A stretch of 64,000 bases of DNA from the NCBI GenBank assembly GCA_937876465.1, contig CALEHV010000043.1:3198-67197 (forward strand), in the 5' to 3' direction. The position numbers and the translations under genes are program-made. Under the pieces are notes generated by a model. It was given only the letters and a program-made list of their open reading frames with translations, was not told where the DNA came from and ran no database searches. Of this stretch, positions 35,147 through 56,490 are shown one piece after another. This stretch comes from an uncultured Bacillota bacterium. Lineage in GTDB: Bacteria; Bacillota_I; Bacilli_A; RFN20; CAG-826. Position 1 is the stretch's first letter. Each line of letters begins with the position of its first letter.

Positions 35147-35148
35147 GG

Positions 35149-35418: not shown

Positions 35419-35439
35419 TACGTTTTTCACCACCTTTCC

Positions 35440-35522: not shown

Positions 35523-35688
35523 TTTTTTCTCTTTTTTCATTTTTTGTTGCCTTGAGACACTAATATAGTAAAATAAATGTATAAAAATTACAAGTTAAAT
35601 GTAAAAAAAATACGGATGAAGTGAAATTTTATTACAATAGATTTGCATTTTAAATTATTTTATTTATAATAAAGTTAGAGGTGATATT

Positions 35689-37598: not shown

Positions 37599-37631
37599 TA
37601 TAAAATTAATATTCTTAACTGTTTTCATTGT

Positions 37632-38322: not shown

Positions 38323-39198
38323 ATGATAGCTTCATCTTTAATTTTGACGGCAGTTACGACATTAAGTGGGGTTAACAATGTCGCTAAGGCGAATAAAATA
38401 GAAATATTAAAGCAAAACTCAATTGAAATAATCCAAAAAGCATCAACAGAGTTTGAATTTGATGTAATTGGATTGAATATAAATGACCAGTTTCAAATTA
38501 CAAAGGAAAAAATTCTTTCGTTTTATGAAGAAAATAATCTTCTTAATGATGATTATATTGAAGCTATGAAGACGAAAGTGGTAGAAGATGACTCTTTTCA
38601 AATCACTAATATCGAAAGTTATGAATTATCTAGTTTTGATAAAATATCAATAAAAAATATGATTAATGATATTCGTGAAATAAGCATTGTAGAGAATAAC
38701 AATAATTTGAGATTTAAAAGTGGGAATTTCCAAATTCCAGCGGAAATTTTTAGTGATTTAAATAATAAAGACAAAAGTGGAAGCAATCAGAACGACAATC
38801 AGCAAGATGGGACGGCAACATTTCAACATACATTGCCAATTTTGGAATATAATTCTTCTAATGTTACAAGTACTGTTGGTGGAAAGGTCGATGGTATAAA
38901 TTTTGTTGGAATCATAGCAAATAGAGATTCTTGTATAGGTTTGTACAACACCGTTGCAAGATTTTTAAATAATCAAGTTATGTATGGTGCGAGTGGAATA
39001 AAAGGGCCTGCCTCTATGATAATTGAAACCTTATTGACACTTACTCCAGCGCCGGTAACAACCGTTATAAGTGCGCTCGTTGGATATTTCACTGGATTGT
39101 GGTCATCATTCTGCTCTTTGTTTACATCGGGTGGCCCAATAGGGATTGTTGTCGGTTTGATAATCGGCCTTGTTGAGCTGCATGCATTGCAACTCTAG
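38323..39198 (+). CDS. Secreted protein with a Gly/Ala-rich hydrophobic C-terminus (bacteriocin/toxin-like)
   Basis: SD AGGAGG. Signal-like MIASSLILTAVTTLSGVNNVAKA. C-terminus TPAPVTTVISALVGYFTGLWSSFCSLFTSGGPIGIVVGLIIGLV. A protein-like frame continues after the stop in another frame to 39299. Confidence 0.55.
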   Translation: MIASSLILTAVTTLSGVNNVAKANKIEILKQNSIEIIQKASTEFEFDVIGLNINDQFQITKEKILSFYEENNLLNDDYIEAMKTKVVEDDSFQITNIESYELSSFDKISIKNMINDIREISIVENNNNLRFKSGNFQIPAEIFSDLNNKDKSGSNQNDNQQDGTATFQHTLPILEYNSSNVTSTVGGKVDGINFVGIIANRDSCIGLYNTVARFLNNQVMYGASGIKGPASMIIETLLTLTPAPVTTVISALVGYFTGLWSSFCSLFTSGGPIGIVVGLIIGLVELHALQL

Positions 39199-39216
39199 TT
39201 ACTATGTTTGTAATGG

Positions 39217-39807
39217 GTGCACAAGGGAAAGGCTTTGCTGTTGGTTGGAAAGTGTATAATTTGTTCAATTGGAAGTGGTACTGTGGCGAAGCAAATTAAC
39301 GACAATTTTTATGACAGGTTTATAGATGAAAGTGCTCTTCAAAATATTCCTGATGAAAAAACTAAACAAAAATACTGGGTTTTATATTTTTCTTTTATAC
39401 TATTCTGTCTAATCTCTTCATCACTTCCAACTTTTGTCGGTTATTATTTTAAACATATCTTTTCGATAATTATGTTTATATGGTATGTATTATTCATTTT
39501 TTTAGCGGTGTTATCGTTTATTAAAATTCTAATGATTGATAGTAAATATAAAGTATTTAAGAATCATTTATTATTCTTATTGAGTTTGCCATACATTATC
39601 CTGATGATACTTATGCTTACTCTTCCGATTTTTACAACACAGTTTGTGCCTTTGGAAAATGGAGCATTCGAAGTGAACTTCAACCCATTCTTTTATTTTT
39701 TATTTTTTCTTCCCCTCTTTTTTGGCTACACGATATTTATCTATTATGCATTTATGAAATGTTTCGCAAAATATGTAAAAAAGCATAAAAAAGATGTTTT
39801 TAACTAA
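39217..39807 (+). CDS. Polytopic membrane protein, candidate immunity protein; start uncertain (in-frame GTG at 39283)
   Basis: At least four hydrophobic helices. Lies immediately downstream of the toxin-like gene. Confidence 0.5.
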   Translation: MHKGKALLLVGKCIICSIGSGTVAKQINDNFYDRFIDESALQNIPDEKTKQKYWVLYFSFILFCLISSSLPTFVGYYFKHIFSIIMFIWYVLFIFLAVLSFIKILMIDSKYKVFKNHLLFLLSLPYIILMILMLTLPIFTTQFVPLENGAFEVNFNPFFYFLFFLPLFFGYTIFIYYAFMKCFAKYVKKHKKDVFN

Positions 39808-40066
39808 CTCTATACTAAAAAAGATTTTTTAAATACTGATTTCCGAGTCATAATATAACTCAAGTTAAAAAAACAAAAACAGAACGCTCAGATATGGAGA
39901 AAATTTTAATTAAAAATGCAAAAATTGATGATTTAGCGAGCATCGATCCCACAGATTCTGAAAAATCAAAAGAACAGCTTGAAATTGTTAAAAAATTAGA
40001 TGATTTAGATTAATAAAAGGAGATTAACTATTAAGAATCAAGATAAAAATTCAAAATAATTAATTT

Positions 40067-40418
40067 CCATAACGAAAACATTCCAAATAACAATGGAATT
40101 AAAAAAATATTGTGATAATTCGCAGTAATTATCTAAAAGATGATAAGTCAAAACGAGTATTACTTGTTTCGACTTAACTAATTCTAAGTAATCCCTAGTA
40201 GCAAGTGATTACTTTGTAATCTATAAGAGAAAGTTCCACAAAGAGAACTGTTTTCGTTATACAAATCAATTTTCTCTTGATTTCTAATAGTTAAAAACCC
40301 CCTTTCTTAGAAGCAGTAGAACCATATTTATTTTATCTAAAATGTTGCAACGACTTTGTCAAATAACAAGATAATTCGTTTTATCTAAAGAAAATCACTC
40401 TTTTAATGAGTGATTTTT
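40067..40418 (+). ncRNA. Candidate structured non-coding RNA ending in an intrinsic terminator
   Basis: A 12-nt inverted repeat ATAACGAAAACA (40067-40078) / TGTTTTCGTTAT (40247-40258) encloses several hairpins. The terminator is AATCACTC...GAGTGATT plus a T-run at 40391-40418. There is no ORF. Confidence 0.3.
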
Positions 40419-40460
40419 TTGTGCACAAAGACCATCGTAAATGATAATATTGTGGTAACG

Positions 40461-40652
40461 ATGAATATAGATTACGCATAGTTATTAAAACAATATAGAG
40501 AAAAGATGTTTTTGTCACAAAGAGATTTGGCATCAAAGCTTGGTATTTCTTACACAACGGTTAATAGATGGAAAACTGGAAAGTTTGTTCCAACTATTCA
40601 AATGAAGAAGAAACTATATAGTCTTTTTAAGAAAGCAGGATTGATTAAATAA
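40461..40652 (+). pseudogene. XRE-type HTH regulator with an in-frame TAG at codon 7 (or a 48-aa CDS from ATG 40506)
   Basis: MNIDYA*LLKQYREKMFLSQRDLASKLGISYTTVNRWKTGKFVP is a classic HTH_3 pattern. Confidence 0.55.
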
Positions 40653-40773
40653 CATAATTTAGGATTAAGCCCTATTTATCATCTGACAACAAATTTATAA
40701 ACATGAAAGTTAAATGAGGTTGTTGTCGCATTTAGTGATTAATAAGCATCTTATTAAATGAAAGGTAGCATTT

Positions 40774-41081
40774 GTGAACGAAAAAGATTTTGAAAATGCC
40801 TTTAAAAGAGCGTTTCAAAAATGTGATGAAAAAGGCGAAATGAAGTGCTTGAGAAAATTTATAATGAGTATTACAAAATCGTTTGTTTTTGTATCTCAAA
40901 AAATGTCCAAGGAGACGCTCTTATCGAAGATTTGGCTCAAGATACGTTTATAAGATTCTTTGAAAATGCACGGACAGTGAGGGGTTCAGCGAAATATTGC
41001 CTTGTAAAAGTCGCAAATAATCTCAACTTAGGTCTTGATCACATTGATTATGATGGTTGTCTACATTGGATGCGGCACTGA
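40774..41081 (+). pseudogene. Frameshifted, truncated sigma-70/ECF-type factor (region 2 only)
   Basis: The GTG 40774 reading VNEKDFENAFKRAFQKCDEKGE shifts frame into VLEKIYNEYYKIVCFCISKNV...LAQDTFIRFFEN. Region 4 is absent. Confidence 0.5.
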
Positions 41082-41168
41082 TTGACATAAAAACTTGACA
41101 AAAATGCAAATATATCAAAAGTGTAAAACAAAATAATTTAGAAACTGCAAGTTAGAACTTTACAATAC

Positions 41169-41196
41169 TTGACAAAATGTGTAGACACTTTATAAT
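41169..41196 (+). promoter_or_regulatory. Near-consensus sigma-70 promoter placed for a leaderless transcript
   Basis: TTGACA (41169-41174), 16-nt spacer, TATAAT (41191-41196). ATG 41203 lies 6 nt downstream and has no SD. Confidence 0.5.
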
Positions 41197-41202
41197 TTAG
41201 TC

Positions 41203-42297
41203 ATGAAACAAATTATCAAAGACCTAATTAACAACTTGTGGAATGGTAAAGCAAATGTTATCCATGTTAATAAATCAATGGATGTCAGTGATGTTTTATT
41301 GCGTGATGTAAAAAATGCAATCGACGAGAATAGCAAAAACTATTTCTTTTTCCATGCGTATCCAGGTAACACGAAAGATGTCGATTTACTAAACAACATC
41401 CAGAAAACAATGTATTTGTTAAAAGATAATAAGATGGTTTTTATAATCCAAGATCTTTTCTATTTTCAGTCTCCTCAAGCTATTATTAACGCTTTTTATG
41501 GTAAAAAAAATATTACCGCTATCATTACTACAAATATTGATATTGTTTATGCTTTAAAAAACGATGATACACAAATACGTGGTCGTTACACGAGATATTT
41601 TTTGGCTCCAGAATTATACGGAGATGTAGTAGATACAAGTGATTACCATTTGGATGGACTATTTAATTTCTTTTCAAAAAAAGAAGCAACAGAAATATAT
41701 AAGTATATTGTTTGGCATAGTGGAGAGGTTTTGTCCTTTAGACAGCTATATGAATCTATTAAGGTAAATAAAACTCTTCCATTTTATATTGAAGCGATTA
41801 ATTATATGAATAAGGCTGGCATGATTTATATCCTTGAAAGAGTAGAGATAAAAGAAGGAAAAAAACTGTCTTCTGGAATTGTTTTTTATCCAACTTATGT
41901 TTCTGATATTGATTTAACAGATTTGCCAAATGAAAAGAAATTCAAATTAAAAAACGAAGCTTATCTCGTTGCTAAAATGTTTTCTAATAATTGCATGGTT
42001 TATCGTGCGATATCTTATTATGGCGATACGATTGATGGAAAATATAAATCTAGAGTGGAATTCAACCGTGGATTTCTAATTGAATATTATGACCGTAAAT
42101 GCGTTATTAAAATTGATTTTGACGATGATGATAATGCAATTGATAGATTTAAAAAAGCAAAGAGCAATATTCCTCATATGATTGCAGTTCTAGGGCAAGT
42201 GGAACTAAGAGTAGACAAAGACGGTATGGCTTATTGTGGTTTACAAACGTTGTTTGAGAAAGGCTTAGACGGCTATGGCGGATTTCCAAAGAACTAA
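41203..42297 (+). CDS. Divergent AAA_14/DUF4143-like protein lacking a Walker A motif
   Basis: Its length and layout parallel the downstream paralogue. The P-loop position reads ANVIHVNKSMDVS (no GK[ST]). The gene overlaps the next gene by 23 nt. Confidence 0.5.
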   Translation: MKQIIKDLINNLWNGKANVIHVNKSMDVSDVLLRDVKNAIDENSKNYFFFHAYPGNTKDVDLLNNIQKTMYLLKDNKMVFIIQDLFYFQSPQAIINAFYGKKNITAIITTNIDIVYALKNDDTQIRGRYTRYFLAPELYGDVVDTSDYHLDGLFNFFSKKEATEIYKYIVWHSGEVLSFRQLYESIKVNKTLPFYIEAINYMNKAGMIYILERVEIKEGKKLSSGIVFYPTYVSDIDLTDLPNEKKFKLKNEAYLVAKMFSNNCMVYRAISYYGDTIDGKYKSRVEFNRGFLIEYYDRKCVIKIDFDDDDNAIDRFKKAKSNIPHMIAVLGQVELRVDKDGMAYCGLQTLFEKGLDGYGGFPKN

Positions 42298-43510
42298 AGA
42301 AGTTGATACATTATTATCATTTATTGGTAATGGCAAAGTTAATATTGTTGCTGGTTTAAGAAGAGCTGGAAAGACTTATCTATTAGATACAGTTTTTGTA
42401 AACAAACTAATTAATGAACTAAAAACCTATGTTGAAAAAGATATTGGTATTCTTTACCTTGATAGTGTCGATAAAGACATAAGAACAGAGGTTCAACTCG
42501 ACTCTGCGCTTGCTAATTTAGCTAAAAATAATAAGAAAATCATCATTATTGATGAAGTTCAGTTAGCAACTGGCTTTGTTAATTCATTAAAAGCATTTGT
42601 AAAAATGCATCCAGAGATTGCCGTTTTTGTAACTGGATCTAATAGTGATATTCTTTCTAAACAGATTATTGCTATGTTCCAAGGTTCTGCAGAAACGCTT
42701 ATTATAAATCCACTAACATATAAAGAAATAATAGAAGAAATTCCTGACTATCCTATTGATACTTATGTTGCTTATGGTGGGTTGCCATATATTGTATTAG
42801 AAAAGCAAGAGAAAAAAGCGATTGAATTAGAAAAGATATTTAAAGAGTTATACGAAAGAGATGTTGAATCCAAAATAAATAAAACTTTGAAGTATTTATC
42901 AACTGTCCACGCAAAAGAATTAATCAATTTAATTTCTTCTTCAGCTTCTCCGGTTAGCCCAGCTTCGATTGCGAAGAAGTTTTTGCATGGTTTAAGTAGG
43001 AAGGGATTAGATGAGGTTATTGTCGTAAAAGAAATCAACGACATTTTATCTATTCTTGAAGATTGCTTTTTATTAAAGCACATTTTAATAGACGATTATG
43101 AAAAAAGAACACCATTAGAGAATATTGGTCTTAATAAAAAATACTACTTTGCTGACAATGGTTTAAGGTACATTAAATGTTTTGACTTATCAAAGGCTAT
43201 GGGCTATTGCTTAGAAAATGCTGTATTTATTCATCTTTCCAAGAGAGGAATTATTCCGACAGGTTATCTTATGCTTGGAGAGAAAAATGACATAGTCGGT
43301 GAAATTGATTTTGATTATATGTTCGAAAAGAAGCAATATCTTCTCCAAGTTACTCACACAATTAACGAAAAGGATTATAAAAGAGAGATTGGGAATCTTA
43401 AAGATTTACCTTCTTCATTCATAAAACAAGTTGTATATATGAATAACATAACTGGAAAAGAGGAAGAAGGAATTACTTATCTACGCGGCAAAGAATTCTT
43501 TACTAAATAA
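42275..43510 (+). CDS. AAA_14 ATPase with DUF4143 C-terminal domain
   Basis: Walker A GLRRAGKTYLL, Walker B IIIIDEVQ, plus VTGSNSDIL, YGGLPYIV, KYYFADNGLRY, LENAVFIHL, GEIDFDY. Confidence 0.75.
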   Translation: MADFQRTKEVDTLLSFIGNGKVNIVAGLRRAGKTYLLDTVFVNKLINELKTYVEKDIGILYLDSVDKDIRTEVQLDSALANLAKNNKKIIIIDEVQLATGFVNSLKAFVKMHPEIAVFVTGSNSDILSKQIIAMFQGSAETLIINPLTYKEIIEEIPDYPIDTYVAYGGLPYIVLEKQEKKAIELEKIFKELYERDVESKINKTLKYLSTVHAKELINLISSSASPVSPASIAKKFLHGLSRKGLDEVIVVKEINDILSILEDCFLLKHILIDDYEKRTPLENIGLNKKYYFADNGLRYIKCFDLSKAMGYCLENAVFIHLSKRGIIPTGYLMLGEKNDIVGEIDFDYMFEKKQYLLQVTHTINEKDYKREIGNLKDLPSSFIKQVVYMNNITGKEEEGITYLRGKEFFTK

Positions 43511-43515
43511 GAATT

Positions 43516-43947
43516 GTGCATACTTACTCAACTCAATTAGCGCCATCTATTTATGTATTTAGCGATCATATTGAAGTTTTTTCTTACGGGAATCCACTGT
43601 CTGTTCAACCTAAAGAAGAGTTCCTAGATGGTGTTTCAAAGCCTATCAACCCTAAACTCATGGATATTTTCATGAAAATTCATAAATCAGAACCAAGTGG
43701 TAAAGGCGTTAATACGATTAAGAAAAAGTATGGTGAAGACGCTTTTGTAATGAATAGTGAGTCTTTTACTGTTTCTATTCCGTTTAATGAATTAGCTTTG
43801 GAGGATAATGTCCCTCAAGATGTCCTTCAACAATCCGAGATAGATATTCTTATCGAAGCAATTAAGAAAAACCCAAATATAACCAGAGCAGAATTGGTTA
43901 AGCTTATTGGCAAGACTATCAAAACTGTGGGAAGAATAATTGTTTGA
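43516..43947 (+). pseudogene. C-terminal fragment of an AlbA_2/HATPase_c_4-type (RecG-like) putative regulator
   Basis: Only the HATPase_c_4-like part is present (IYVFSDHIEVFSYGNPL...SKPINPKLMDIFMKIHKSEPSGKGVNTI), followed by an HTH-like tail. The N-terminal domain is missing and the start is GTG. Confidence 0.5.
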
Positions 43948-44110: not shown

Positions 44111-45022
44111 TCATAATTTAAATTTGTTTCTAAAGTTGTATTTATCAAGCACATTTTTCTTTCTTTTCAAATCGACATGTGTATATATTTCAGTAGTGGA
44201 TATTGATGAATGACCCATCAGTTCTTGAACAGTTCTCAAATCGCCTCCATTTGATAAAAGATTTGTGGCAAAAGTATGTCTTAGACAATGAGGGGTATAT
44301 GTACTAGAAATATGCAACTCTTTTAGCAATTGTTTAAACAGTGAATCTATTGAATGAGTTCCTAGTCTTTCTTTATTTTTGTTCAAAAAAAGATAATCGT
44401 TTTGGCATTCAACACTTTTTCTTATTCTCCAATATCTTTGAAGATTAGACCAGCAATCATTGTTTGGGATATATGCGATTCTTTCTTTCTTTCCTTTTCC
44501 ATGAATGATAATTATTCTGCTGGCAAAGTCAATGTCGTTGATTTTAATGGTACTTGCTTCATTGATACGGATACCAGTAGTTATTAGCAAATCAAATAAT
44601 GCTAAATCGCGATTAGATTTGAAGCAATCATACATAGATGTGCATTTGCTTCTTTGACTATATAGGTGAAAGAGCATTTTTTTGATGATTGATATCGGCA
44701 TTGTCTTTGGGATGCTTTTTTCATCTTTAATGTTTAAAGCAATCTCTTTAGTGTAATTGACTTTAATTTTCTTATTAACTTTTAAATAATCCAAAAATAA
44801 CGATATCGATATTCTTTTCCTTTTTATTGATGATGCTTTATAACCACCTTTTATTAGTGATTGAAAATAAGATGCAACAGTCATTTTGCTTAACAAATTG
44901 TCCTTAAAATGCGAAATGAATAAAGATACATCATATTTATATGCACTTATTGTTTCTTTGCTCTTGTTAGATGATGATTTCAAGTGATCTACATATTCAT
45001 CCAGTAATTTCATCATTTTCAT
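44111..45022 (-). CDS. Tyrosine site-specific recombinase/integrase (XerC/D-like)
   Basis: SD GGAGGAA. Catalytic motifs TGIRINEA, HCLRHTFATNLL, GHSSISTTEIYTHV. Confidence 0.85.
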   Translation of the reverse strand: MKMMKLLDEYVDHLKSSSNKSKETISAYKYDVSLFISHFKDNLLSKMTVASYFQSLIKGGYKASSIKRKRISISLFLDYLKVNKKIKVNYTKEIALNIKDEKSIPKTMPISIIKKMLFHLYSQRSKCTSMYDCFKSNRDLALFDLLITTGIRINEASTIKINDIDFASRIIIIHGKGKKERIAYIPNNDCWSNLQRYWRIRKSVECQNDYLFLNKNKERLGTHSIDSLFKQLLKELHISSTYTPHCLRHTFATNLLSNGGDLRTVQELMGHSSISTTEIYTHVDLKRKKNVLDKYNFRNKFKL

Positions 45023-45112: not shown

Positions 45113-46426
45113 ATGGGTATTTTTGATTTTGAAAAATCATTGATCCACAATGATGAAACCATAGGCAATAGTGATTATTTTTCAGAGTTGCTACAACAAC
45201 CAAGAAGCAGTCATAAGAGAAACTCAGCAAAAGATGTTACAGTTTCAAACATATTCTCCAAAAGACAATGTTGGTCATTTTCTTCTTTAAAAAACGTTTT
45301 TTTCATCAACACAAAATTAAGCAATTTTTCATTTCAAAGTTGTTATTTGGATGGATGTTGTTTCATTAATGATAAGAAAAAGAAATGGCTTCATACAGTT
45401 TATTACACCAATTCTTTTGTAAAGAACACAACTTTTAAAAAAATCGATTTTACCAATGTAGATTTTTCAAATGCTATTTTCCAAAACTGCATTTTTTATT
45501 CAGTCTCTTTTAGATCATGCAATTTTATGCACTCAAAATTTATTAATTGTTCATTTAGATTTGTTTCAATGCGATATTCTAATTTTGAGTATTCTATGTT
45601 TATAAATCCTTCCATAAGTTCATCCGTCTTATCGTTTAATCAATCACCATACATTATTGGTGGCATTGAAATGGTTAAAAATGGTAAATATATTAGACTC
45701 AATCAAAAAGGTGTCTTCATGAAAGCTAATGAATATGGCGATTATTTTCAAGACTTTATTAATTATTATTTAAAAAAAAACGAATTCTTCCCTCTTGTTA
45801 ATCTTTATATGAATTTAAAAGAAGTCGAAAAAGCAAAAGAAGTTGCTTCAATGGGATTTAAAAAGGCAATCATGTTAAATAATCATGAACTAGCTTTTTC
45901 GTTTGCCAGATTGATTAATTATTATGGATTTTTATCTTTTGATGAAAAAAATAGCCTTCTTGAATTTGCGAATCAATCATTAGTACAGCAAGAAAATAAC
46001 GATTATTTAAAAGAAAGATTCTTTTCAATTCAAAATATTGAAGAAGAATTGTTATATCGACCATCTCAAGGCAGCATGCTTGTTGCAATTTTTAAAACTA
46101 ATTTGCTCGAGGGTGATGAAAGACTAAATGATACATTAAAAGATATCGATGAATTTGGTGAGGGGTTTAGCGATGAAAATGGATATCATGTTTTAAAAGT
46201 CTCGCACAACTCTCCGTTCGAAATAGTTTGTTTGATTGTAGGGTTTATTGGGAGTGTTGCTTCTATTTCAAGCGTTATCGATACGGTTATCAAAAAAATC
46301 AAGGAGCGGAAAGCTAAAAAAGATAGCCGCAACAACGAAGTTGATAATGTTGCTATTTCTGGGGCGAATGTCACCATTACATATTCTGATGGCAAGGTAA
46401 TAAGAATTGAAAAAAAGATAAACTAA
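45113..46426 (+). CDS. Pentapeptide-repeat protein with helical middle region and C-terminal transmembrane helix
   Basis: SD GGAG. Tandem pentapeptide repeats, e.g. FKKIDFTNVDFSNAIFQNCIFYSVSFRSCNFMHSKFINCSFRFVSMRYSNFEYSMF. TM helix FEIVCLIVGFIGSVASISSVI. Confidence 0.65.
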   Translation: MGIFDFEKSLIHNDETIGNSDYFSELLQQPRSSHKRNSAKDVTVSNIFSKRQCWSFSSLKNVFFINTKLSNFSFQSCYLDGCCFINDKKKKWLHTVYYTNSFVKNTTFKKIDFTNVDFSNAIFQNCIFYSVSFRSCNFMHSKFINCSFRFVSMRYSNFEYSMFINPSISSSVLSFNQSPYIIGGIEMVKNGKYIRLNQKGVFMKANEYGDYFQDFINYYLKKNEFFPLVNLYMNLKEVEKAKEVASMGFKKAIMLNNHELAFSFARLINYYGFLSFDEKNSLLEFANQSLVQQENNDYLKERFFSIQNIEEELLYRPSQGSMLVAIFKTNLLEGDERLNDTLKDIDEFGEGFSDENGYHVLKVSHNSPFEIVCLIVGFIGSVASISSVIDTVIKKIKERKAKKDSRNNEVDNVAISGANVTITYSDGKVIRIEKKIN

Positions 46427-47307
46427 TATCTTTTATAAATAAGTTTTAATAAGTACGTCTTGTTATCATATTCTTCGTATTGTTCTACAGCATCTGTCTT
46501 TATTTTATAAAGATAGCCATTATTAATTCTTTTAACATTAAAGAAATCCTCGTTCGTTAATATAATCGAAGAATAATTAATAACTAATGTTTCACATTTT
46601 TTAATTGTTTCTAAATCGAAGAATTCTTTTGAAAACCAGGAAAAATAATTCAGCTCTTGCAAAGAAGGTAAACCGTTATCCTTTAACGACATGTTGATTA
46701 AAAAGGAAGATGCTTGAAAGCGAGCGTTTATTTCGATTGCGTATAGTGTGTTTTTTCGATCACGCATAAAATCGACACCACATATACCTCTATATCCAAA
46801 CAATTGCATCTTATGGGCAATTTCTTTAGCTGCAAAATAAGATGACTTAAGAATTTCGTTACCAAGTATTTCGTTAGCATTGATAAAGTCTGCGCCTTGA
46901 TATGATTGCCTTTTTAGGTCGATTATTTGTATGGATGGTTGGAATATTATTACATCTTTTTCACTTATCAAAATATGTCTATTAAAGCTAATTGTGTTTT
47001 CAATAAATTCAGAAACAAGGTAAGTGGTTTCGGGTTTTGTTTCTAGTAATAACTCATCCTTTCTTAATAAAAGAGTATTGTCACATCCTGCGCCATAAGG
47101 CTGTTGCAGAACGAACAATTCAGTATCCTTAAAATATGATGAAAGAGCTTTGTCATTTATTTGAGAACCTTTCAAAACAACATATTTCGGAAATTGAAAA
47201 GAAGACAAATTGAATAGTTTTCGAAATTCGATTTTATTATTAAATAAATCAACAACTTTTTTATCGTTTACAACAAGAAAATTATTTTTAAATAATTTCA
47301 GCATCAA
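46423..47307 (-). CDS. ATP-grasp domain protein
   Basis: GYRGICGVDFMRDRKNTLYAIEINARFQASS (the E-x-N catalytic region of ATP-grasp enzymes). Confidence 0.7.
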   Translation of the reverse strand: MMLKLFKNNFLVVNDKKVVDLFNNKIEFRKLFNLSSFQFPKYVVLKGSQINDKALSSYFKDTELFVLQQPYGAGCDNTLLLRKDELLLETKPETTYLVSEFIENTISFNRHILISEKDVIIFQPSIQIIDLKRQSYQGADFINANEILGNEILKSSYFAAKEIAHKMQLFGYRGICGVDFMRDRKNTLYAIEINARFQASSFLINMSLKDNGLPSLQELNYFSWFSKEFFDLETIKKCETLVINYSSIILTNEDFFNVKRINNGYLYKIKTDAVEQYEEYDNKTYLLKLIYKRY

Positions 47308-47563: not shown

Positions 47564-47665
47564 AATTCCTAATTACTGTAAGAAAATATTAACAACTGCT
47601 TGTTTGGGTATAAAAAACCATTGTTTATAACAAACAAGGTCAAATGATGTATAATAATTTTAAAT

Positions 47666-48508
47666 ATGTGGAAAAAGAAAAATGCAATCAAATCTCTAAA
47701 TTGGTCTTTATCTATTTCTTCTTTTATTGGGGCACTTTTGTCTTTTATATTACTTCCAAGTAATTTTTGGTGGATTGGGCTAATTATATTCGTAGCAACA
47801 TTTATAATAGTGTTCTTCGCAATATATTTAGTTTTAAGATTCAAAAAACGCCACAGAATCTCTGGTAGAGGCTCGGTTTTTATTGAATCTAGGTATGGTA
47901 ATGTTTTAAACATTAAAAAGGACAAACGTGAAAAATTAAAACCGGTTGTTGTAATTCCTGTTAATTCTTCGTTTGACACTATAGTGGAAGATAGCCCAAG
48001 CATTGTAGACAGAATTGTTGAGGGGACTTCAATTCATGGACAATGGTTAAGACAATATGCTTCAACACCTGAATTATTAGAAAAACTTGATATGGATATT
48101 AGTCAATTTATTGCTAACAAACATTGGGTTCCTATTAAAGTGCTAGACAATAAAAGAGGTAAGAAAGATGTTTATCCTCTAGGAAGCTATGTATTCATTG
48201 AATCAAACGATTGTATCTTTTTGTTATTCGCGCTAACTGAATTTAACGAACATAATAAAGTTGTAAAAAAAGATGCCGAGGAATTTACTATCTTAATGAA
48301 AAAACTTATGGATATCACTGATGAATGTGCTGGTAAACACGTCTATATTCCTATAATGGGAACAAAAATTGCTCTTTTTGGAATTGATGATTTAGCTTCA
48401 TTTGAATATATAAAGAATGCAGCCTTAAATAAAAAATGTTCCTTGAGGGCATCTATATCTATCGTTATTTATGAAGCTTCTAGGGATAAAGTTTCTATTT
48501 ATGATTAA
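47666..48508 (+). CDS. thsA: Type II Thoeris ThsA-like effector (two N-terminal TM helices plus Macro-like domain)
   Basis: TM segments LSISSFIGALLSFILL and WIGLIIFVATFIIVFFAIYLVL. Macro-like VVVIPVNSSFDT...GTSIHGQW...VYIPIMGT. Confidence 0.55.
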   Translation: MWKKKNAIKSLNWSLSISSFIGALLSFILLPSNFWWIGLIIFVATFIIVFFAIYLVLRFKKRHRISGRGSVFIESRYGNVLNIKKDKREKLKPVVVIPVNSSFDTIVEDSPSIVDRIVEGTSIHGQWLRQYASTPELLEKLDMDISQFIANKHWVPIKVLDNKRGKKDVYPLGSYVFIESNDCIFLLFALTEFNEHNKVVKKDAEEFTILMKKLMDITDECAGKHVYIPIMGTKIALFGIDDLASFEYIKNAALNKKCSLRASISIVIYEASRDKVSIYD

Positions 48509-48519
48509 GGAGATAGAAA

Positions 48520-49146
48520 ATGAGCCATAGAGTATTTATAAGTTTTAAAAAAGAAGATCGTCGATATAAAGATGCGATTGTTAAAAGACTTGAAGAAAAA
48601 GAAATACAAGTTAATCATTTAGACGAAACAATTCAATCAGACAATATCGATTATGTAATGCAACAAATTCGAGATAAATGGCAAGGATCAACAACAGTTA
48701 CTGTATTTTTGATAGGCGAACACTCATCAGAAAACGAGGGTGTTGATATTTATGGAAGAAATCACCAAAGCTTTATTATTAGGGAATTAAGATCGGCTCT
48801 TTCGGATAGGGACGGAAATCCTCGCGATGGCATTTTGGGTGTTGTTTTGCCAGAAATGGAACAAAAAGTTTATGGTGGTTCATATAAATGCGAACATTGT
48901 CAACAAGTGATAAATGTTATTAATATAAATGATTCAACCGTAATTAGGGAGTTCTCCAAGAATTATTATTTAAAAGCAGATCAATGTGGACATTATTGCG
49001 AAGATGGACGGTTTTGTGTTTTGTGTCGATATAGTGAATTTATGAATGACCCAGAAAAATATATTGATAGGGCATATGATAAGATTAATGAACCAATTGC
49101 TAAGTGTGTAACTTATAAAGGAATTAATCATAAAGGAAACTATTAG
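48520..49146 (+). CDS. thsB: ThsB-like TIR-like (DUF1863-type) protein
   Basis: SD GGAGA. HRVFISFKKEDRRYKD, TVTVFLIGEHSS and FIIRELRSAL fit the TIR-like pattern. Lies 11 nt after the ThsA-like gene. Confidence 0.6.
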   Translation: MSHRVFISFKKEDRRYKDAIVKRLEEKEIQVNHLDETIQSDNIDYVMQQIRDKWQGSTTVTVFLIGEHSSENEGVDIYGRNHQSFIIRELRSALSDRDGNPRDGILGVVLPEMEQKVYGGSYKCEHCQQVINVININDSTVIREFSKNYYLKADQCGHYCEDGRFCVLCRYSEFMNDPEKYIDRAYDKINEPIAKCVTYKGINHKGNY

Positions 49147-49171
49147 TTCACTATTCAAATAGGAAATAATT

Positions 49172-50146
49172 ATGGCAAATTCAATAGAAAGAATGGGAGT
49201 TCATCATATAGGCGAAATTGCAGAAAATAGTGGATGGTTATTTCGTGAACAGCTAACAAATGATATCGGCATTGACGCTCACATTGAGTTTATTGATTCA
49301 TCTAATAAGCCAAAACAACTAATTGCCTTACAAATAAAATCTGGTAGTAGTTGGTTTAACGAGAAAACCAAAGATTATGTTGTTTTTCGCGATATCGACG
49401 AGAGACAATATTCATATTGGACAATGAATTCTTTGCCATGCATTATAGTTCTGTATAATCCTAATGATAATACTTGTATATGGCAGGAGTTATCAAATAA
49501 AACAATAGAAAAAACAAAAAATGGTAATGGGAAAGGTTATTTTGTTAAAATCCCACTTAACCAGATTTTTTTAGATTCTTCATCAAATGAAAAATTACTT
49601 TCATTAACCAATCTTCCTGAACATATCGTAAATTATAATTTCCTGTTATCTCAAAAGGTGTTTATGGAAGTGATTAACAATGGTGGGGTTGTAAAACTAC
49701 ATTCATGTGAATGGGTGAATAAATCTAGCGGCAGGGGCGAAACGGAACTAATAATAGATGATGGGAATGAAATAAAGAAATATTCCTATCCCTATTGGTT
49801 CCCTTTTACTCCATACGAAGACGTTTTTCCGCGTTTATTTCCTTGGGCTTCTTTTTCTCCCGACGAGGAATTTTATCAAGATAGTGATGAAACACTGTGG
49901 AAAGATTTAAATTGTTGGTATGACAAAGAAGAAGATGATTGGATTGTTGTGGGAGAATCTTTTGAAGAATTTCGCAAAAGTCTTAATCCAATAAGGAGCG
50001 TTGACCATGCTGGTGAAGTTGCTGAATATATGTTGATTCTTGCATTAAACGATTTAGGAAAATCATTTTTAAAAGTTGATGAATTCTTATCTAATGACCA
50101 ACCATATAATTCTACTAGGCCAAAAGAAGAGGATGATTATAAATGA
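49172..50146 (+). CDS. DUF4365 (PD-(D/E)xK-like) domain protein with unknown C-terminal domain
   Basis: ERMGVHHIGEIAENSGWLFREQLTNDIGIDAHIEF...LIALQIKSGSSWF...YWTMNSLPCIIVLYN matches the DUF4365 pattern. Confidence 0.6.
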   Translation: MANSIERMGVHHIGEIAENSGWLFREQLTNDIGIDAHIEFIDSSNKPKQLIALQIKSGSSWFNEKTKDYVVFRDIDERQYSYWTMNSLPCIIVLYNPNDNTCIWQELSNKTIEKTKNGNGKGYFVKIPLNQIFLDSSSNEKLLSLTNLPEHIVNYNFLLSQKVFMEVINNGGVVKLHSCEWVNKSSGRGETELIIDDGNEIKKYSYPYWFPFTPYEDVFPRLFPWASFSPDEEFYQDSDETLWKDLNCWYDKEEDDWIVVGESFEEFRKSLNPIRSVDHAGEVAEYMLILALNDLGKSFLKVDEFLSNDQPYNSTRPKEEDDYK

Positions 50147-50541
50147 ATATTAAGTTATCTGAGTATAAAAATCCAAATACAATTTCGGATGAATGCGAAC
50201 TAGATCCAGCACAAGAATATGTGCTAATCGATTTTGAATCAGAATTAAAAATACAATCCGCCATTCTGATGTCTTTTCAGATAATGGATGCTCCTTCGGC
50301 TCTCAAAAATTATCATGCATGGTTATACAAAAATGGATTTGATATTAATTCGCCAAATCCAACCAATGCATTTGTATCTTCTTTTTATGGAAATATGTCA
50401 TTGTGGAAGACGAATTATTCACAGGGAATAGTCGTAAAAGTTGATGGAGATGATGATTATTTCATTGTTATGGAATGTAGTTCAAAGAATAAAGGCTATA
50501 AACATTCGAGAGTCGTTTTGACATTAGGCGGATGTTTGTAA
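50143..50541 (+). CDS. 132-aa protein of unknown function (full-length parent of the 37632-37932 repeat)
   Basis: ATGA overlap with the DUF4365 gene. No recognisable motif. Confidence 0.6.
   Translation: MNIKLSEYKNPNTISDECELDPAQEYVLIDFESELKIQSAILMSFQIMDAPSALKNYHAWLYKNGFDINSPNPTNAFVSSFYGNMSLWKTNYSQGIVVKVDGDDDYFIVMECSSKNKGYKHSRVVLTLGGCL
50241..50541 (+). repeat. Direct repeat copy 2
   Basis: Matches 37632-37932. The 3' 200 nt are identical. Confidence 0.9.
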
Positions 50542-50715: not shown

Positions 50716-50808
50716 ATGGAAACAATTTCAACTGGTTTAGAATTTAATGGTATAGACAACATTATTTGTGGTGTCAATATTCTTTGCAACACAAAATGCG
50801 GTCAATAA
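50716..50808 (+). CDS. 30-aa Cys-rich RiPP precursor peptide candidate
   Basis: SD AGGAG 5-6 nt upstream. METISTGLEFNGIDNIICGVNILCNTKCGQ. The stop overlaps the start of the radical SAM gene. Confidence 0.6.
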   Translation: METISTGLEFNGIDNIICGVNILCNTKCGQ

Positions 50809-52043
50809 AACTATCAAGGTATACCATTTTTTATCATACAAAGAATGGGCATACATATTTTTATAATACTCTTTTTAATTCATTATCTAGATTAAACCCA
50901 GAATATTCTTCCAAAATTACCAACATCGATTCGATTGATTTATGGCCCAACGACATCAAGGACTATCTTTTAAAGTTACATTTTTTGTATTACGAAGACG
51001 ACATAATCGAAAGCAATGTCATTAAAGACAAAGAATTTATGTTTTTTTCTGATGAAACAGACTTTGCTGTAATAAATTTTGTTACTAGTCTCGGTTGTAA
51101 TCTCAATTGCCCATATTGTTATGAGAATCACAGTTTATTGAATTATATAACAAAAGAAAGATATGATGATGTCATCGAACATCTTGCGAATAAAAAATAT
51201 AGAGGATATCATTTTTCATGGTTTGGAGGTGAACCACTGTTAAGAATTAATGATATTTGTTACTTTTTATCTAACTTAATATCAAAAAATGCGAAAAGTC
51301 CAATACCATTTACTTGCGACTTGACGACAAATGCCACCTTGTTAACTCTAGAAACCATCAAATTGCTTGTGAATCTTGGCATAGACACCTATCAAATAAC
51401 TTTGGATGGCATAGATGAAAACTCTCACAATAAGACTAGAAAATTTAAAAATGGCACAGGGTCCTTTGATTTAATCATGTCGAATTTGAGAAAAATCAAG
51501 AGCGCGGATATCAAATGCAAAATTGTTATTAGATTTAATGTCGCTAATGTAAGACAGTGTAAACCCTTTATTGATTTTTTTAAAAGTGAATTTGGGAACG
51601 ACAATAGATTCTCTTGCTTACTATTTCCAATTAGTAAATGGAGTGCTGTTAATTCGTTTGACAATTATTGTGACTCAGATGTTTTTGATTTAAATAAAAT
51701 CGTCATAAAAGAGAAGGCTAATTCGGAATACTTAAACATTTTGATTAATTCAAACCTATTTTGTGAATATGGCTTCTCTGATAAAATAGTGATAAATCCA
51801 AATAACACTATTGGAAATTGCACTTTACAGTTTGAAAATGTTTATGGGAAATCTGATTCTGAACATCTAAATGAAATTAAAAATTTGAGGAAAAAATATA
51901 ATAATGTTAATTGTTATCTTTATCCAAAATGTTTTGGGTTCAGATGCAAAAATATGAATGTTAATGATAATGAATGTCGAGAATTAAGATATAAATTCCA
52001 AGATTTTTTGTATGAATATTTCGAAGAACATAGTAAAAAGTAG
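50796..52043 (+). CDS. Radical SAM / SPASM-type peptide maturase
   Basis: CNLNCPYC (CxxxCxxC) about 95 aa from the N-terminus, which leaves room for an RRE-like domain. GGEPLL motif. C-terminal Cys cluster FCEYG...GNCT...NCYLYPKCFGFRC. Confidence 0.8.
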   Translation: MRSIKLSRYTIFYHTKNGHTYFYNTLFNSLSRLNPEYSSKITNIDSIDLWPNDIKDYLLKLHFLYYEDDIIESNVIKDKEFMFFSDETDFAVINFVTSLGCNLNCPYCYENHSLLNYITKERYDDVIEHLANKKYRGYHFSWFGGEPLLRINDICYFLSNLISKNAKSPIPFTCDLTTNATLLTLETIKLLVNLGIDTYQITLDGIDENSHNKTRKFKNGTGSFDLIMSNLRKIKSADIKCKIVIRFNVANVRQCKPFIDFFKSEFGNDNRFSCLLFPISKWSAVNSFDNYCDSDVFDLNKIVIKEKANSEYLNILINSNLFCEYGFSDKIVINPNNTIGNCTLQFENVYGKSDSEHLNEIKNLRKKYNNVNCYLYPKCFGFRCKNMNVNDNECRELRYKFQDFLYEYFEEHSKK

Positions 52044-53679
52044 TTTCTTTTGCAATAAATTTTTGCTTACAATAGTTTTGCTACTGTCGATTATTGAATC
52101 TTTTTGTGTTGTTTTTTTCTCGTTTGTTATTGAAAAGATAATTAATATGGGGATAGCTGGCGAAAGCATAATTAATCTCCTTTTATTTGCAATTATTTCC
52201 GTTGTATTATTTGTTACATTTTTCTTTTTATTTAATTTCACTTTTAATATTTATGCCGAAAGTGCTTCAAAGAGACTCAGGTTTAATTTATTTAACTTAT
52301 ATTTTTCAAGCAGACCATCGGTTTTTACTACGCGCGATAATGAGTATTATGTTTCTAAAATCGTTAATGACGCACGCATTATATCCAATAATTATTATTG
52401 TAATCTAATTTTATTTATTCGCAGCTTATCGAAAATAATATTAGGTTTAGCTTATGCATTCTATGTTCATTATGCAATAGCAATCTTGTTTATTGTGTTT
52501 TCGCTTACATTGTTTATTGTTGTCTTGTTATTTCCAAAAAAGTTGAGTAAAAAGAGAAACGAACAAGTTAATGCATCTGAAAAATATATAGGAGCATTAA
52601 CAAAAGCATTTAGCGTGCATAATTCCGCTTATTATTTTGATTCTAATAATTTTGTAAAAAACAAGACTGACGAATTAAATAATTATTTAAGAGAAAAGGA
52701 AACAAAAATATCTATTTTTAGTACCTTTATTAATTCTACTGCAACTTTTATAACCATTTTTGTCCAAATGACTTCTATCATTTTTTCAATTATGCTTTAT
52801 AGCAAGGGAATTATTGAGTTAGGTGCTCTAACATCTGTTTTAGTTCTCTCATCTTATATTCTTAATCCTGCCTCTGAACTTTCGATAATTATTACTTCGA
52901 TTTTTGGGTGTAAGAAAATCATTCAAAGTATCAAACTAGATACATATAAGTATGGAGTTGAGGCTGTTGAGAATCCAAAATTATTAAAAAACATCCAAGA
53001 AATTTGTGTTAATAATGCAACTTTTTTGTTCGAAAATGGCAGTGGTTTTAATAAATTAAATATAACAATTCAAAAGAATAAAAAAGTTTTAATTCTTGGC
53101 AATAGCGGTTCAGGAAAAACTACATTTTTGAAATTGTTAGCAGGAATTTACGAATGTGATAATAATTGTAAAATTATTTTTCAAAATGGAGAAAGCGAAG
53201 TTATTTCATCTTCGAATTTGATTTCTTATTGCGAGCAAAATCCAGCAATTTTTGACGCAAGTGTTGAAGCGAACATCACTTTTTCTAGTGAGATTGATAA
53301 TGAGAGACTCAAAAAGTCTATGATTAAGAGTCGCTTATGTTTTGAAGAAGACAACTATTTAGATTGTTTAAAGAAATTAAATGATAGTAATTTGTTGTCT
53401 GGTGGTGAAATAAAGAGAATTGGATTGGCAAGGATGTTTTATAAAGATAGTGAAATCATGATTTTTGATGAGCCAGCAACCTCGTTGGACAAAAACAACG
53501 AAAAAATTGTTTACGAAAACATTCTTGATTTAAAAAATAAAATTATAGTATGCGTTGCTCACAAGCCCCCAATTTCCATTGCCTCAAAGTTCGATAAAGT
53601 ATACCGCCTCGATGATTTTAAACTTACTGAAATTGATAATTTGGATGATGTTTCCGATCTTATTGAAAATGACAATTGA
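52012..53679 (+). CDS. ABC exporter (fused TMD-NBD), no C39 peptidase domain
   Basis: Six-helix N-terminal half. Walker A GNSGSGKTT, signature LSGGEIKRI, Walker B IMIFDEPATSLD. Confidence 0.8.
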   Translation: MNISKNIVKSSFFCNKFLLTIVLLLSIIESFCVVFFSFVIEKIINMGIAGESIINLLLFAIISVVLFVTFFFLFNFTFNIYAESASKRLRFNLFNLYFSSRPSVFTTRDNEYYVSKIVNDARIISNNYYCNLILFIRSLSKIILGLAYAFYVHYAIAILFIVFSLTLFIVVLLFPKKLSKKRNEQVNASEKYIGALTKAFSVHNSAYYFDSNNFVKNKTDELNNYLREKETKISIFSTFINSTATFITIFVQMTSIIFSIMLYSKGIIELGALTSVLVLSSYILNPASELSIIITSIFGCKKIIQSIKLDTYKYGVEAVENPKLLKNIQEICVNNATFLFENGSGFNKLNITIQKNKKVLILGNSGSGKTTFLKLLAGIYECDNNCKIIFQNGESEVISSSNLISYCEQNPAIFDASVEANITFSSEIDNERLKKSMIKSRLCFEEDNYLDCLKKLNDSNLLSGGEIKRIGLARMFYKDSEIMIFDEPATSLDKNNEKIVYENILDLKNKIIVCVAHKPPISIASKFDKVYRLDDFKLTEIDNLDDVSDLIENDN

Positions 53680-53923: not shown

Positions 53924-55991
53924 ATGATTATGATATATACAAAATTAACAATTTTTCGTTAAAATCTTTTAAAAATTATACCACACCAAACAATATGTTG
54001 TTTAAAAAGAACAGTGTGTTCTTTGGTTATAACGGCAAAGGAAAAACATCTTTGGCCAAAGGGATCGAGAAAGAAATTAGAGATATACAGGGGATTAATG
54101 ACAATGAGTTTAGAATATTTTCAAAAGATTATTTAAAACTAAAACTTGTCAACGATGAAAGAAGAATTAAAGGGGTCAAGGCTGTTTTTGGAAATAAAAA
54201 TGTAAAAAACGATGAGGAAATTGAAAAACTAAAAGAAAAAATACAGGATACAACGGTTTTGTCTAATGAAATTGTTTCAAACCTAAAATCGATTGATTCT
54301 TTGATTAAAACTATCGAAGATGGGATAAGAGGATCAAAAAAGATTCGTCATGTTTCTGTCACTAATCATGAGGAGTTGGCGAATTTTAAAGCTACTTTTC
54401 AAAATATGAAGGCAATGGCATTGAAAATTACAACCGTAGATAAACTTGAAACCATCAATGTAGAATTTGATTTTGAAAGAGCTAAATCAGATTTAGAATC
54501 ATTACCAACTATTGATTTATTAAATCTAACAGACGATTTAAATACAGCATCAAAAATAGCTAATAGCCCATATAAGATGGAGGATATTCCGGCCACGAAA
54601 GTGCTTGACTGGATTGAACAAGGAATATTACTGAATAAAGAGAGAAAAAAATGTTTGTTTTGTGGATCTGAGTTAACTAATTATGACAAAATTGTAGAGA
54701 ATTTTAAAGAATTCGTTAATTCTACTAAGCAAAAAGACGAAAGATTGTTAATTAATTTTTTTGAAGTCCTAAAAAGCGAGATACTCAAAATTGAAAATTT
54801 TATCAGCCACGAACAAATATTCGAAAACTGTGGCATTAATATCTCTTCACAAATCAAAGCACTTGCTGAATATAAAGATAGGCTTTGTTATTTCAAGGAA
54901 AGAATTAATGATAAACTATCAAACTTTGAGTCTTTAATTTCTATTGAATTTGGTGATATTGAAATTAAACGAACCATTGCATCTGGCGCTTTGTTCAAAT
55001 TAAACATATAGTTTCTGATTCCATAACGAGATTGACTAAGGAAGAAAGTAAACTTAATGACTTGTTAAAAGGATCTATTGCATTAAAGATTTTGAGCAAT
55101 AAAAAAATTAATGAACTAGCCAAGGAAACAAATGAAATGATAGTCAAACTAAAAGCTATCGAGGAGTCAAATTTGCTACTTAATAGTCAAATAAGAAATT
55201 TAAAAAATAAAGTTAAAGTTACTAGTGATTTTGCAATTTTTATCAATGGTATTTTGCTCGATTTAGATTTTAAGTTTAAATTAGATATTATTGAAGAAGA
55301 TTATCGCATTGTTCCGTTAAAAAGCGATACTGAAATCGATATCGATGAAATTAGTGAAGGTGAAAGGAATCTTTTGTCGCTACTTTTCTTTTATTTTGAG
55401 TTGTTCGACGATGATAAACAAACTCATTTTAAAGAAGATATACAGTATGTTATTGTGGATGATCCTCTCTCCAGTTTAGATGATAATAATCGCGCTTATT
55501 TAATTTCTATTTTGCAATTATTATTCAAGCAGAATAATGTTCAAGTTTTTGTTTTTACACATGATTGGGATGCCTATTGCCAACTTTTGTATAATGCAGA
55601 CAAAGATAATTTTGGTAGTTTTGAAATAAAAAAAGATAATAACGGTGTTTCGAGTGTAGAAATAGGAAAACCGACAATCACACCCTACGAACATGATTTC
55701 TTTGAATTATTAGATATGTCCAGTAAAACTGCTGATTCATTGGATGATGGTGATATTTATCATTTACCAAATTGCATGAGAAGAGTGTTGGAGTCTTTTT
55801 TGAAATTTAAAGTACCGAATAGTTCCCCAACAAATAAAAACGTTGCTAATGTTAGGAAAGGTCTCTTCAACAAAGATACTTTAGAAGCCAAAGAACAAAC
55901 CAAATTAATGCCATTACTTTTAGTTATTAATTCTCAATCACATGAAGCGGCAAGAAATGGCGAAGAAGTATATAAAGCTTTAAAATTTTAA
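53924..55991 (+). pseudogene. Decayed second AAA_13 / RloC-PrrC-like ATPase (N-terminal frameshift and a mid-gene interruption)
   Basis: MIMIYTKLTIFR* shifts into NFSLKSFKNY...FFGYNGKGKTSL. Also CLFCGS, a break at 55011-55032, ISEGERNLL, VIVDDPLSSLD, FTHDWD, CMRRVLESF and NSQSHEA. Confidence 0.65.
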
Positions 55992-56399: not shown

Positions 56400-56490
56400 T
56401 GGCGGAGGATAAGAGATTTGAACTCTTGCGCCCCTTTCAGAGCCTATAAGCTTTCCAAGCCTACCCCTTCAGCCTCTTGGGTAATCCTCC
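56400..56490 (-). tRNA. tRNA-Ser (anticodon GGA), type II with long variable arm, CCA encoded
   Basis: Manual fold of the reverse complement. Acceptor GGAGGAT/ATCCTCC, D stem CCC/GGG, anticodon stem TAGGC/GCTTA with loop TTGGAAA, long variable arm, T arm AAGAG-TTCAAAT-CTCTT, discriminator G plus CCA. Confidence 0.85.

Follow-up and report, generated by a model that had tools for sequence, protein, structure and literature searches.

Tightly packed genes within a bacterial defence island may form a single system or merely stand side by side, and this question is raised by a stretch of 64,000 nucleotides (nt) from an uncultured Bacillota bacterium (GTDB lineage Bacteria; Bacillota_I; Bacilli_A; RFN20; CAG-826), which covers positions 3,198 to 67,197 of the forward strand of contig CALEHV010000043.1 in the GenBank assembly GCA_937876465.1 and is referred to here as the window. 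Four plus-strand open reading frames (ORFs) at positions 47666-50541 follow each other with gaps of 11 nt and 25 nt and a final 4-nt ATGA overlap. Gene 1 (47666-48508; 280 amino acids, aa) encodes a type II Thoeris effector with two transmembrane (TM) segments and a Macro domain, gene 2 (48520-49146; 208 aa) the TIR signal producer ThsB, gene 3 (49172-50146; 324 aa) a nuclease of the DUF4365/DREN family with an additional C-terminal domain, and gene 4 (50143-50541; 132 aa) a small partner protein. Each of them has many full-length homologues, and they are therefore real genes rather than chance ORFs. An initial annotation, made from the sequence alone, had read this arrangement as a Thoeris pair extended by a second effector or regulator. 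Its coordinates and spacings were reproduced, and the motifs it quoted all occur in the translations (VVVIPVNSSFDT and SIHGQW in gene 1, HRVFISFKKEDRRYKD and CEHCQQ...CGHYCEDGRFCVLC in gene 2, GIDAHIEF...LQIKSGSS in gene 3). As shown in the following, its headline was not supported: Thoeris and genes 3-4 are very probably two independent modules that lie next to each other.

Gene 4 is an obligate partner of gene 3. When reference genomes, one per species, were scanned with gene 4 as the seed, 80 loci were obtained, and in 73 of them gene 4 is directly preceded by a full-length homologue of gene 3; of the other seven, five are truncated by a contig end and two have decayed. Conversely, a metagenome scan with gene 3 as the seed gave 73 loci with sufficient DNA downstream, and gene 4 adjoins gene 3 in 69 of them. 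Across loci, the two genes are spaced by -4 to +26 nt. The 80 reference loci span metagenome-assembled genomes (MAGs) of Bacilli, Clostridia, Lachnospiraceae, Oscillospiraceae, Coprobacillaceae, Enterococcus, a Tenericutes genome, Gemella and many oral streptococci. Clustering of all 981 flanking ORFs returned genes 3 and 4 as the only conserved families (80 and 75 loci, respectively), while the next commonest neighbour, a large serine recombinase, occurs in about 20 loci at varying positions. Homologues of gene 3 with about 70% identity were also found downstream of rplM-rpsI, without Thoeris nearby, and are followed after 17-19 nt by a gene of 132-141 aa whose product is 55-64% identical to gene 4. 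One locus from a Methanobrevibacter sp. MAG (L030, JAZLLL010000080.1) carries the pair at 67-68% identity, which means either that a gut archaeon acquired it horizontally or that the contig was misbinned. Among 2.9 million viral contigs the pair was essentially absent, with one distant match. A phage or plasmid origin was rejected: besides this match there was one unannotated 7.7-kb record named "Bacteriophage sp.", and plasmid matches reached only 24-32% identity.

Close relatives of the Thoeris proteins (92-99% identity to ThsA and ThsB) were found beside the pair in a single clade only, the gut and rumen Bacilli MAGs to which the window belongs (loci L012-L019, L021, L023-L027, L102 and L103), and about 135 of the roughly 150 gene 3-gene 4 loci sampled lack close Thoeris genes in their flanks. 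The two modules are separable even in this clade. In L017-L019 and L021, 4 kb with genes for a helix-turn-helix (HTH) protein and an S8 peptidase lie between Thoeris and genes 3-4, and the thsB-gene 3 junction of L017 differs from that of the window. In L017 (4207-7850), the inserted genes encode a 353-aa HTH_3 protein and an 855-aa S8 subtilase, the latter with a weak sCache-like region; this insert, shared by L017, L018, L019 and L021, may be another defence module. L022 retains, upstream of a gene 3 with 97% identity, the 25-nt spacer of the window and no more than the last ~27 nt of thsB, and the genes further upstream are unrelated. In L027, a 2.6-kb insertion with two ORFs (2744-5378) splits thsA from thsB and leaves genes 3 and 4 intact, a configuration that suggests inactivation of Thoeris by a mobile element. 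In L028 and L029, gene 4 persists next to what remains of gene 3 and Thoeris. Vice versa, homologues of ThsA at 79%, 66% and 61% identity have other genes after ThsB and lack genes 3-4. In L196, a gene of 312 aa likewise begins 25 nt after thsB; it was considered as a counterpart of gene 3 and turned out to be unrelated to it. Within the Thoeris-flanked clade, gene 3 is 79-98% identical while ThsA and ThsB stay at 92-99%, an inequality that indicates a mosaic history of the locus. Only two TIR-containing clusters occur among the neighbour representatives, and one of them is the window's ThsB. As the modules come apart even in the window's clade, their adjacency appears to be ancestral to this one clade and to reflect clustering at the level of the island and not a functional requirement. 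Hence, of the readings offered by the initial annotation, it is the third alternative, an independent two-gene system joined to the operon, that the distribution of genes 3 and 4 supports.

On sequence grounds, genes 1 and 2 are an ordinary, already known type II Thoeris pair in which we found nothing unusual. Gene 1 matches the Pfam family ThsA_Macro over residues 92-269 (1.7e-23; 83.7 bits at a cut-off of 25), the Macro models of ThsA in PADLOC (2.6e-46) and the solved ThsA Macro structures 9uuz and 8r66 (~2e-6), and its hydropathy profile indicates two N-terminal TM segments at about residues 11-32 and 34-60. Gene 2 matches the Pfam families TIR_2 (29.4 bits at a cut-off of 28; 1.3e-6) and ThsB_TIR (23.0 bits at a cut-off of 21.2; 1.1e-4) as well as PADLOC ThsB over residues 1-189 (8.4e-15). 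Pfam, PADLOC and hydropathy thus agree with the earlier assignment of a two-TM Macro protein and a TIR-like protein, and both folds, for which a profile search had been proposed, were matched above the Pfam cut-offs. The pair shows the defining architecture of the type, with the TM-Macro effector, called ThsA in older usage and renamed ThsC in a 2025 Thoeris survey, beside the TIR protein ThsB at a gap of 11 nt. In characterised type II systems, the TIR protein makes histidine-ADP-ribose (His-ADPR), which is bound by the Macro domain of the effector (bioRxiv 10.1101/2024.01.03.573942). By analogy, infection would lead ThsB of the window to produce His-ADPR, which would bind to the Macro domain of the two-TM effector, and the cell would be killed or arrested. 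Relatives of ThsA-ThsB recur as a stand-alone pair, and their sufficiency for defence is taken from the literature on other members; genes 3-4, in contrast, do not belong to this system. The Cys-rich C-terminal "extension" initially ascribed to ThsB is no extension, as the PADLOC ThsB match spans residues 1-189. C124, C127, C155 and C165 are kept in the four relatives compared, down to 49% identity, three of which (94-61% identity) are 208 aa long and the 49% one 224 aa, and the four-Cys insertion is typical of the ThsB subfamily.

What, then, do genes 3 and 4 encode? The initial description of gene 3 as a DUF4365 protein with an unassigned C-terminal part was borne out, with a Pfam DUF4365 match (7.4e-33) that covers residues 6-144 and nothing beyond. 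The nuclease domain (residues 1-148; 49172-49615, plus strand) belongs to the PD-(D/E)xK group and has an intact DxGxD...QxK motif (D31, G33, D35, Q54 and K56) that is invariant in 41 homologues. An AlphaFold2 model built with these 41 homologues (mean predicted local confidence, pLDDT, 78.5) displays two domains and a disordered tail at residues 304-324. In a Foldseek search of this model against the PDB, all of the top 15 matches are DREN-APAZ chains of SPARDA (E 2e-10 to 1.5e-5), followed by the homing endonuclease I-Ssp6803I, Hjc resolvases and DpnI. A compact alignment was obtained only with 9jsz_B and comprises the nuclease domain (~155 columns, root-mean-square deviation (RMSD) 4.0 Å, 23% identity), while the top-ranked alignments of 360-395 columns have an RMSD of 20-30 Å and TM-scores of 0.36-0.39. 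Correspondingly, the gene 3 family profile matches the DREN-APAZ sequences of the PDB only over residues 9-110, and the PADLOC DREN-APAZ profile of 429 positions aligns to gene 3 only at positions 12-144.

The remainder of gene 3 forms an acidic, aromatic-rich alpha/beta domain (residues 149-324; 49616-50146, plus strand) with a pI of 4.38 and 15.9% F/W/Y, whose fold is without match: the C-terminal half has no Pfam match, and the domain alone gave no convincing structural match in the PDB. An APAZ-like nature of this domain was considered and not adopted, since the TM-scores of the long Foldseek alignments are explained by the nuclease domain alone and a sequence signal is lacking. A HMMER search with the C-terminal domain alone against 1.84 billion representative proteins returned 254 clusters at 50% identity, and in nearly all of them the domain occupies residues ~150-320 of a protein of ~320 aa; DUF4365 is N-terminal to it in 10/10 sampled relatives. 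Both its position and this fusion suggest that the domain is specific to this nuclease and not a sensor domain of promiscuous use. No Rosetta-stone fusion of genes 3 and 4 emerged, as the C-terminal extensions seen in longer relatives of gene 3 (418-566 aa) do not resemble gene 4. In two short metagenomic proteins, P0256 and P0362, part of the C-terminal domain is continuous with gene 4 sequence (gene 4 hidden Markov model E 2e-50 and 1e-5); they are probably artefacts of a deletion or frameshift and not true fusions, and they were not used.

Gene 4 had been described as lacking any recognisable motif, and indeed no significant match to Pfam, NCBIfam or PADLOC was found. Its homologues fall into 984 clusters, none of which is named or carries a Pfam domain. 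The family is highly conserved, with C112 and C131 invariant and a C-terminal motif MECSxKNxGYKH...LTLGGC, and the protein is acidic (pI 4.87). Its best AlphaFold2 model (pLDDT 84; predicted TM-score 0.80) had no Foldseek match in the PDB or in BFVD (best E >= 1), and profile searches gave no match to PDB sequences. Gene 4 represents an orphan family and, judging from this model, an orphan fold.

Three characterised DUF4365 proteins provide a frame for the pair. In SPARDA, the isolated DREN domain is an inactive monomer, which turns into a collateral nuclease only once four copies are joined by filament assembly (PMC12205087). Gene 3 shares with SPARDA the nuclease family, including the best PDB structure and sequence matches, the retained catalytic motif, the fusion of the nuclease to a non-catalytic C-terminal domain and an adjacent partner gene. 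It differs in that it appears to lack APAZ, with profile matches that end at residues ~110-147, and in that its partner is the 132-aa orphan protein without Pfam match instead of a MID-PIWI Argonaute; no guide machinery is evident, and no Argonaute family is found among the conserved or frequent neighbours of gene 3-gene 4 loci. Divona, a single-gene system of DUF4365 and crr6 from Vibrio chromosomal integrons that is reported to act against phages (bioRxiv 10.1101/2024.07.02.601686), is likewise Argonaute-independent and has an N-terminal DUF4365 nuclease fused to another C-terminal domain. Compared by its description, however, Divona is one gene with crr6 (PF08847), whereas gene 3 has no crr6 match (E <= 1) and possesses a conserved partner. 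EAT16, a DUF4365 toxin carried as cargo by an extracellular contractile injection system of Photorhabdus, lost toxicity upon individual mutation of three of the four motif residues tested (two Asp, Gln and Lys) (PMC11297309). It resembles gene 3 as a two-domain protein with N-terminal DUF4365 whose toxicity rests on the DxGxD...QxK residues, but it is a secreted cargo without a gene-4-like partner and outside any defence-island context. Component A of PADLOC PDC-M02 yields weak partial matches to the nuclease domain of gene 3 (best 1e-5), but these profiles of ~165-185 positions cover the nuclease fold only. As gene 4 in addition matches no PADLOC model, PDC-M02 is not the same system.

On balance, we lean towards reading the island as home to two independent defence modules, in which genes 3-4 are a candidate Argonaute-independent abortive-infection nuclease module. 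Elsewhere, the neighbours of the pair include Gabija GajB, AbiL, MADS, PARIS AriA, DRT, recombinases and genes of restriction-modification. For the defence mechanism of genes 3-4, the following model, drawn largely by analogy to SPARDA, has in our view about even chances of being right. The C-terminal domain of gene 3 would stand in place of APAZ, and gene 4, which is translationally coupled to gene 3, in place of the short Argonaute. A complex of the C-terminal domain and gene 4 would keep the nuclease domains apart and inactive. A phage-derived cue would then alter the assembly state so that the DREN domains could oligomerise, and the oligomerised DREN would degrade DNA indiscriminately, resulting in abortive infection.

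More distant relatives of gene 3 (C-terminal domain 41-49% identical) retain the architecture of nuclease and C-terminal domain and have other tightly linked partners. In one of them a DUF2441 protein abuts upstream within a restriction-modification island; another is flanked on both sides by uncharacterised proteins of 384 aa and 347 aa; a third has a 508-aa DUF2971 partner and adjoins Gabija, and further arrangements occur in other relatives. The partner types seen with DUF4365 proteins of this architecture thus comprise the gene 4 type, the ADP-ribosyltransferase (ART)-like DUF2441 and DUF2971, and several unnamed ones. DUF2441 is a member of the Pfam ADP-ribosyltransferase clan (PMC7955679), and DUF2971 is a DarT/AbiGi-like ART family that forms the sole domain of the validated lactococcal anti-phage gene Aristaios (PMC12522546, PMC11381338). 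Given these ART-type families, a partner may itself be an enzyme and not merely a sensor. Together with the distant ART-like partners, the invariant residues H58, Y92 and E111 of gene 4 prompted a test of gene 4 as a cryptic ADP-ribosyltransferase. This idea was rejected, as hmmsearch and hhalign comparisons with the ART-like partners were negative and Foldseek revealed no ART fold; nor did the partners of the distant relatives in general resemble gene 4 in hmmsearch and hhalign. Tentatively, and as a possibility that we would not call probable, proteins of DUF4365 and this C-terminal domain could be a broad group of Argonaute-independent defence nucleases, whose C-terminal domain docks interchangeable partners that set the trigger or add an activity. 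In that case, genes 3 and 4 would represent the branch of this group in Bacillota, and gene 4 would be a sensor or regulator of new fold.

Other explanations of genes 3-4 have to be weighed against a role in abortive infection. If the nuclease of gene 3 were toxic constitutively and the small, acidic gene 4 protein served as its antitoxin, addiction would stabilise the island, and an effect on phages would be optional. The small size, tight linkage and translational coupling of the genes (4-nt overlap in the window, -4 to +26 nt across loci) would agree with such a toxin-antitoxin pair, as would the acidity of gene 4, the location on integrated elements beside recombinases and the toxicity of a DUF4365 protein upon expression in E. 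coli (PMC11297309). In five loci (L028, L029, L040, L053 and L077) gene 3 is deleted or broken and gene 4 intact, which would also favour addiction; however, the asymmetry predicted by addiction, with orphan gene 4 but never orphan gene 3, had to be discarded because decay was found in both directions. In L118 gene 3 is intact but gene 4 is missing, L180 has only a truncated gene 4, and in L170 an insertion of 1.9 kb splits the pair, although these loci are few and a gene 4 copy elsewhere is possible. Gene 3 is, moreover, 2.5 times longer than gene 4, so that chance favours hits to gene 3. Gene 4 has no HTH, ribbon-helix-helix or AbrB DNA-binding domain according to Pfam, NCBIfam, PADLOC and the fold search, and it evolves as slowly as the nuclease domain (mean p-distance 0.29 versus 0.28). 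As isolated DREN is inactive as a monomer, there is also no obvious constitutive toxin. We therefore regard a toxin-antitoxin pair as unlikely.

An even lower probability is given to gene 3 as an Mrr-type (type IV) DNA sensor or restriction-like enzyme that directly cleaves invading, for example modified, DNA with gene 4 as specificity or regulatory subunit. DUF4365 falls within the Mrr/PD-(D/E)xK group, the structural neighbours next to SPARDA are I-Ssp6803I, Hjc resolvases and DpnI, and one distant gene 3 relative lies among restriction-modification genes. Yet no DNA-binding or modification-reading domain (winged helix, SRA or YTH-like) was recognised in the C-terminal domain or gene 4, the pI of about 4.4 of the C-terminal domain is unfavourable for DNA binding, and the only characterised DREN nucleases are non-specific collateral nucleases (PMC12205087). 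Least of all do we expect genes 3-4 to be accessories of Thoeris, that is, a second effector arm triggered by His-ADPR or a regulator of ThsA/ThsB. The 25-nt spacing without terminator and the four-gene order kept in one clade, with gene 3 down to 79% identity, would be in line with such a role; known Thoeris effectors are very diverse, with DNases among the predicted types in the 2025 survey, and the NAD-using ART-like partners of distant gene 3 relatives hint at ADP-ribose chemistry. These points are outweighed by the prevalence of the pair without close Thoeris genes, by the modules being apart or uncoupled in L017, L021, L022 and L027 and by ThsA-ThsB relatives that lack genes 3-4. In addition, neither the C-terminal domain nor gene 4 has similarity to Macro, SLOG or other nucleotide sensors in Pfam and Foldseek searches, and DUF4365 does not appear in the accessible text and supplements of that survey, which covers 29 putative Thoeris types.

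Several observations weigh against the reading of genes 3-4 as an abortive-infection module with gene 4 as its controlling partner. What points to a physical complex of gene 3 and gene 4 is their linkage. Among 98 distinct pairs, gene 4 distances correlate with those of the C-terminal domain of gene 3 (partial r 0.55) more strongly than with those of its nuclease domain (0.20), but this correlation is confounded because the coding regions of gene 4 and the C-terminal domain adjoin, and recombination alone would give the same pattern. Four of the five AlphaFold2 models of gene 4 are of low confidence (pLDDT 50-66), and the orphan fold is called from one model compared with PDB and BFVD. The conserved 25-nt spacing within the window's clade may leave room for co-transcription and some cross-talk with Thoeris. 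Finally, the ART-like partner of distant relatives could itself be the toxin, so that either protein may be the sensor and either the killer.

Regarding transcription, all four genes are probably covered by one transcript in the window's lineage. A promoter-like site upstream of gene 1 (ATAACA-17-TATAAT; 47627-47655, plus strand) is weak and identified by consensus only, with 10/12 matches. Its -10 box ends about 10 nt before the ATG of gene 1 and a Shine-Dalgarno sequence is lacking, so that we infer that the gene 1 transcript may be nearly leaderless. The 25-nt thsB-gene 3 spacer (49147-49171, plus strand), the junction of the two modules, contains an AGGA ribosome-binding site and no terminator, and no terminator-like sites were found between the four genes. 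As the promoter and terminator scans of the region gave nothing above the expectation from shuffled sequence, a single transcript is to be regarded as plausible. A 144-aa antisense ORF (47569-48003, minus strand) overlaps the 5' part of gene 1 and is most likely spurious in this AT-rich DNA.

The four genes lie within a defence island at about 27-56 kb of the window. Upstream of Thoeris, a stretch low in GC (27512-43947) encodes AbiH (27512-28684), an AIPR protein (31648-33666), an ATPase of the AAA_21 type whose gene overlaps that of a 267-aa partner (35689-37598) and the AAA_14/DUF4143 protein PDC-S01 (42275-43510), after which a truncated HATPase_c_4 fragment follows. A tyrosine integrase (44111-45022, minus strand) comes next, and between it and Thoeris (45113-47307) a 437-aa pentapeptide-repeat protein and a convergent ATP-grasp protein are encoded. 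L012, L013 and L016 keep the integrase and the ATP-grasp gene but have other neighbours, which indicates that this flank is mosaic as well. Downstream of gene 4 (50716-53679), a strong AGGAG ribosome-binding site precedes a Cys-rich ORF of 29 aa (METISTGLEFNGIDNIICGVNILCNTKCGQ), which comes directly before a radical SAM gene (50766 or 50796 to 52043) and overlaps its start; a fused ABC transporter (52012-53679) follows. This region looks like a gene cluster for a ribosomally synthesised, post-translationally modified peptide of the sactipeptide or ranthipeptide type, and weak PADLOC pVip matches of the radical SAM protein are probably generic. Further downstream (53995-55991), ORFs of 338 and 319 aa jointly match one PDC-S06/AAA_13/PrrC-like protein of ~730 aa and are probably one gene split by a stop codon or frameshift. 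A tRNA-Ser(GGA) at 56400-56490 may mark the edge of the island. On the other side, the GC content falls from 0.34-0.38 to 0.27-0.30 at about 17 kb of the window, and the region at 19.8-26.8 kb is devoted to polysaccharide synthesis, with a Wzy_C/Polysacc_synt fusion and a glycosyltransferase; dTDP-sugar genes and AbiH are also found beside relatives of the Thoeris locus.

Taken together, tight packing within a defence island does not equal one system, and the four-gene Thoeris reading is corrected in this sense. While genes 1-2 were already known, genes 3-4 emerge as a candidate cassette of ~1.4 kb that was found in no fewer than 80 Bacillota species of the reference set, among them oral streptococci, Enterococcus, Lachnospiraceae and rumen Bacilli, and what is new is the finding of a nuclease of the known SPARDA collateral type, with Argonaute absent, in a conserved and uncharacterised pair. 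If our reading is correct, DREN nucleases would be controllable by a protein partner rather than by a guide-loaded Argonaute, and the swapping of partners in the wider family would represent a natural experiment on modular sensor-effector wiring.

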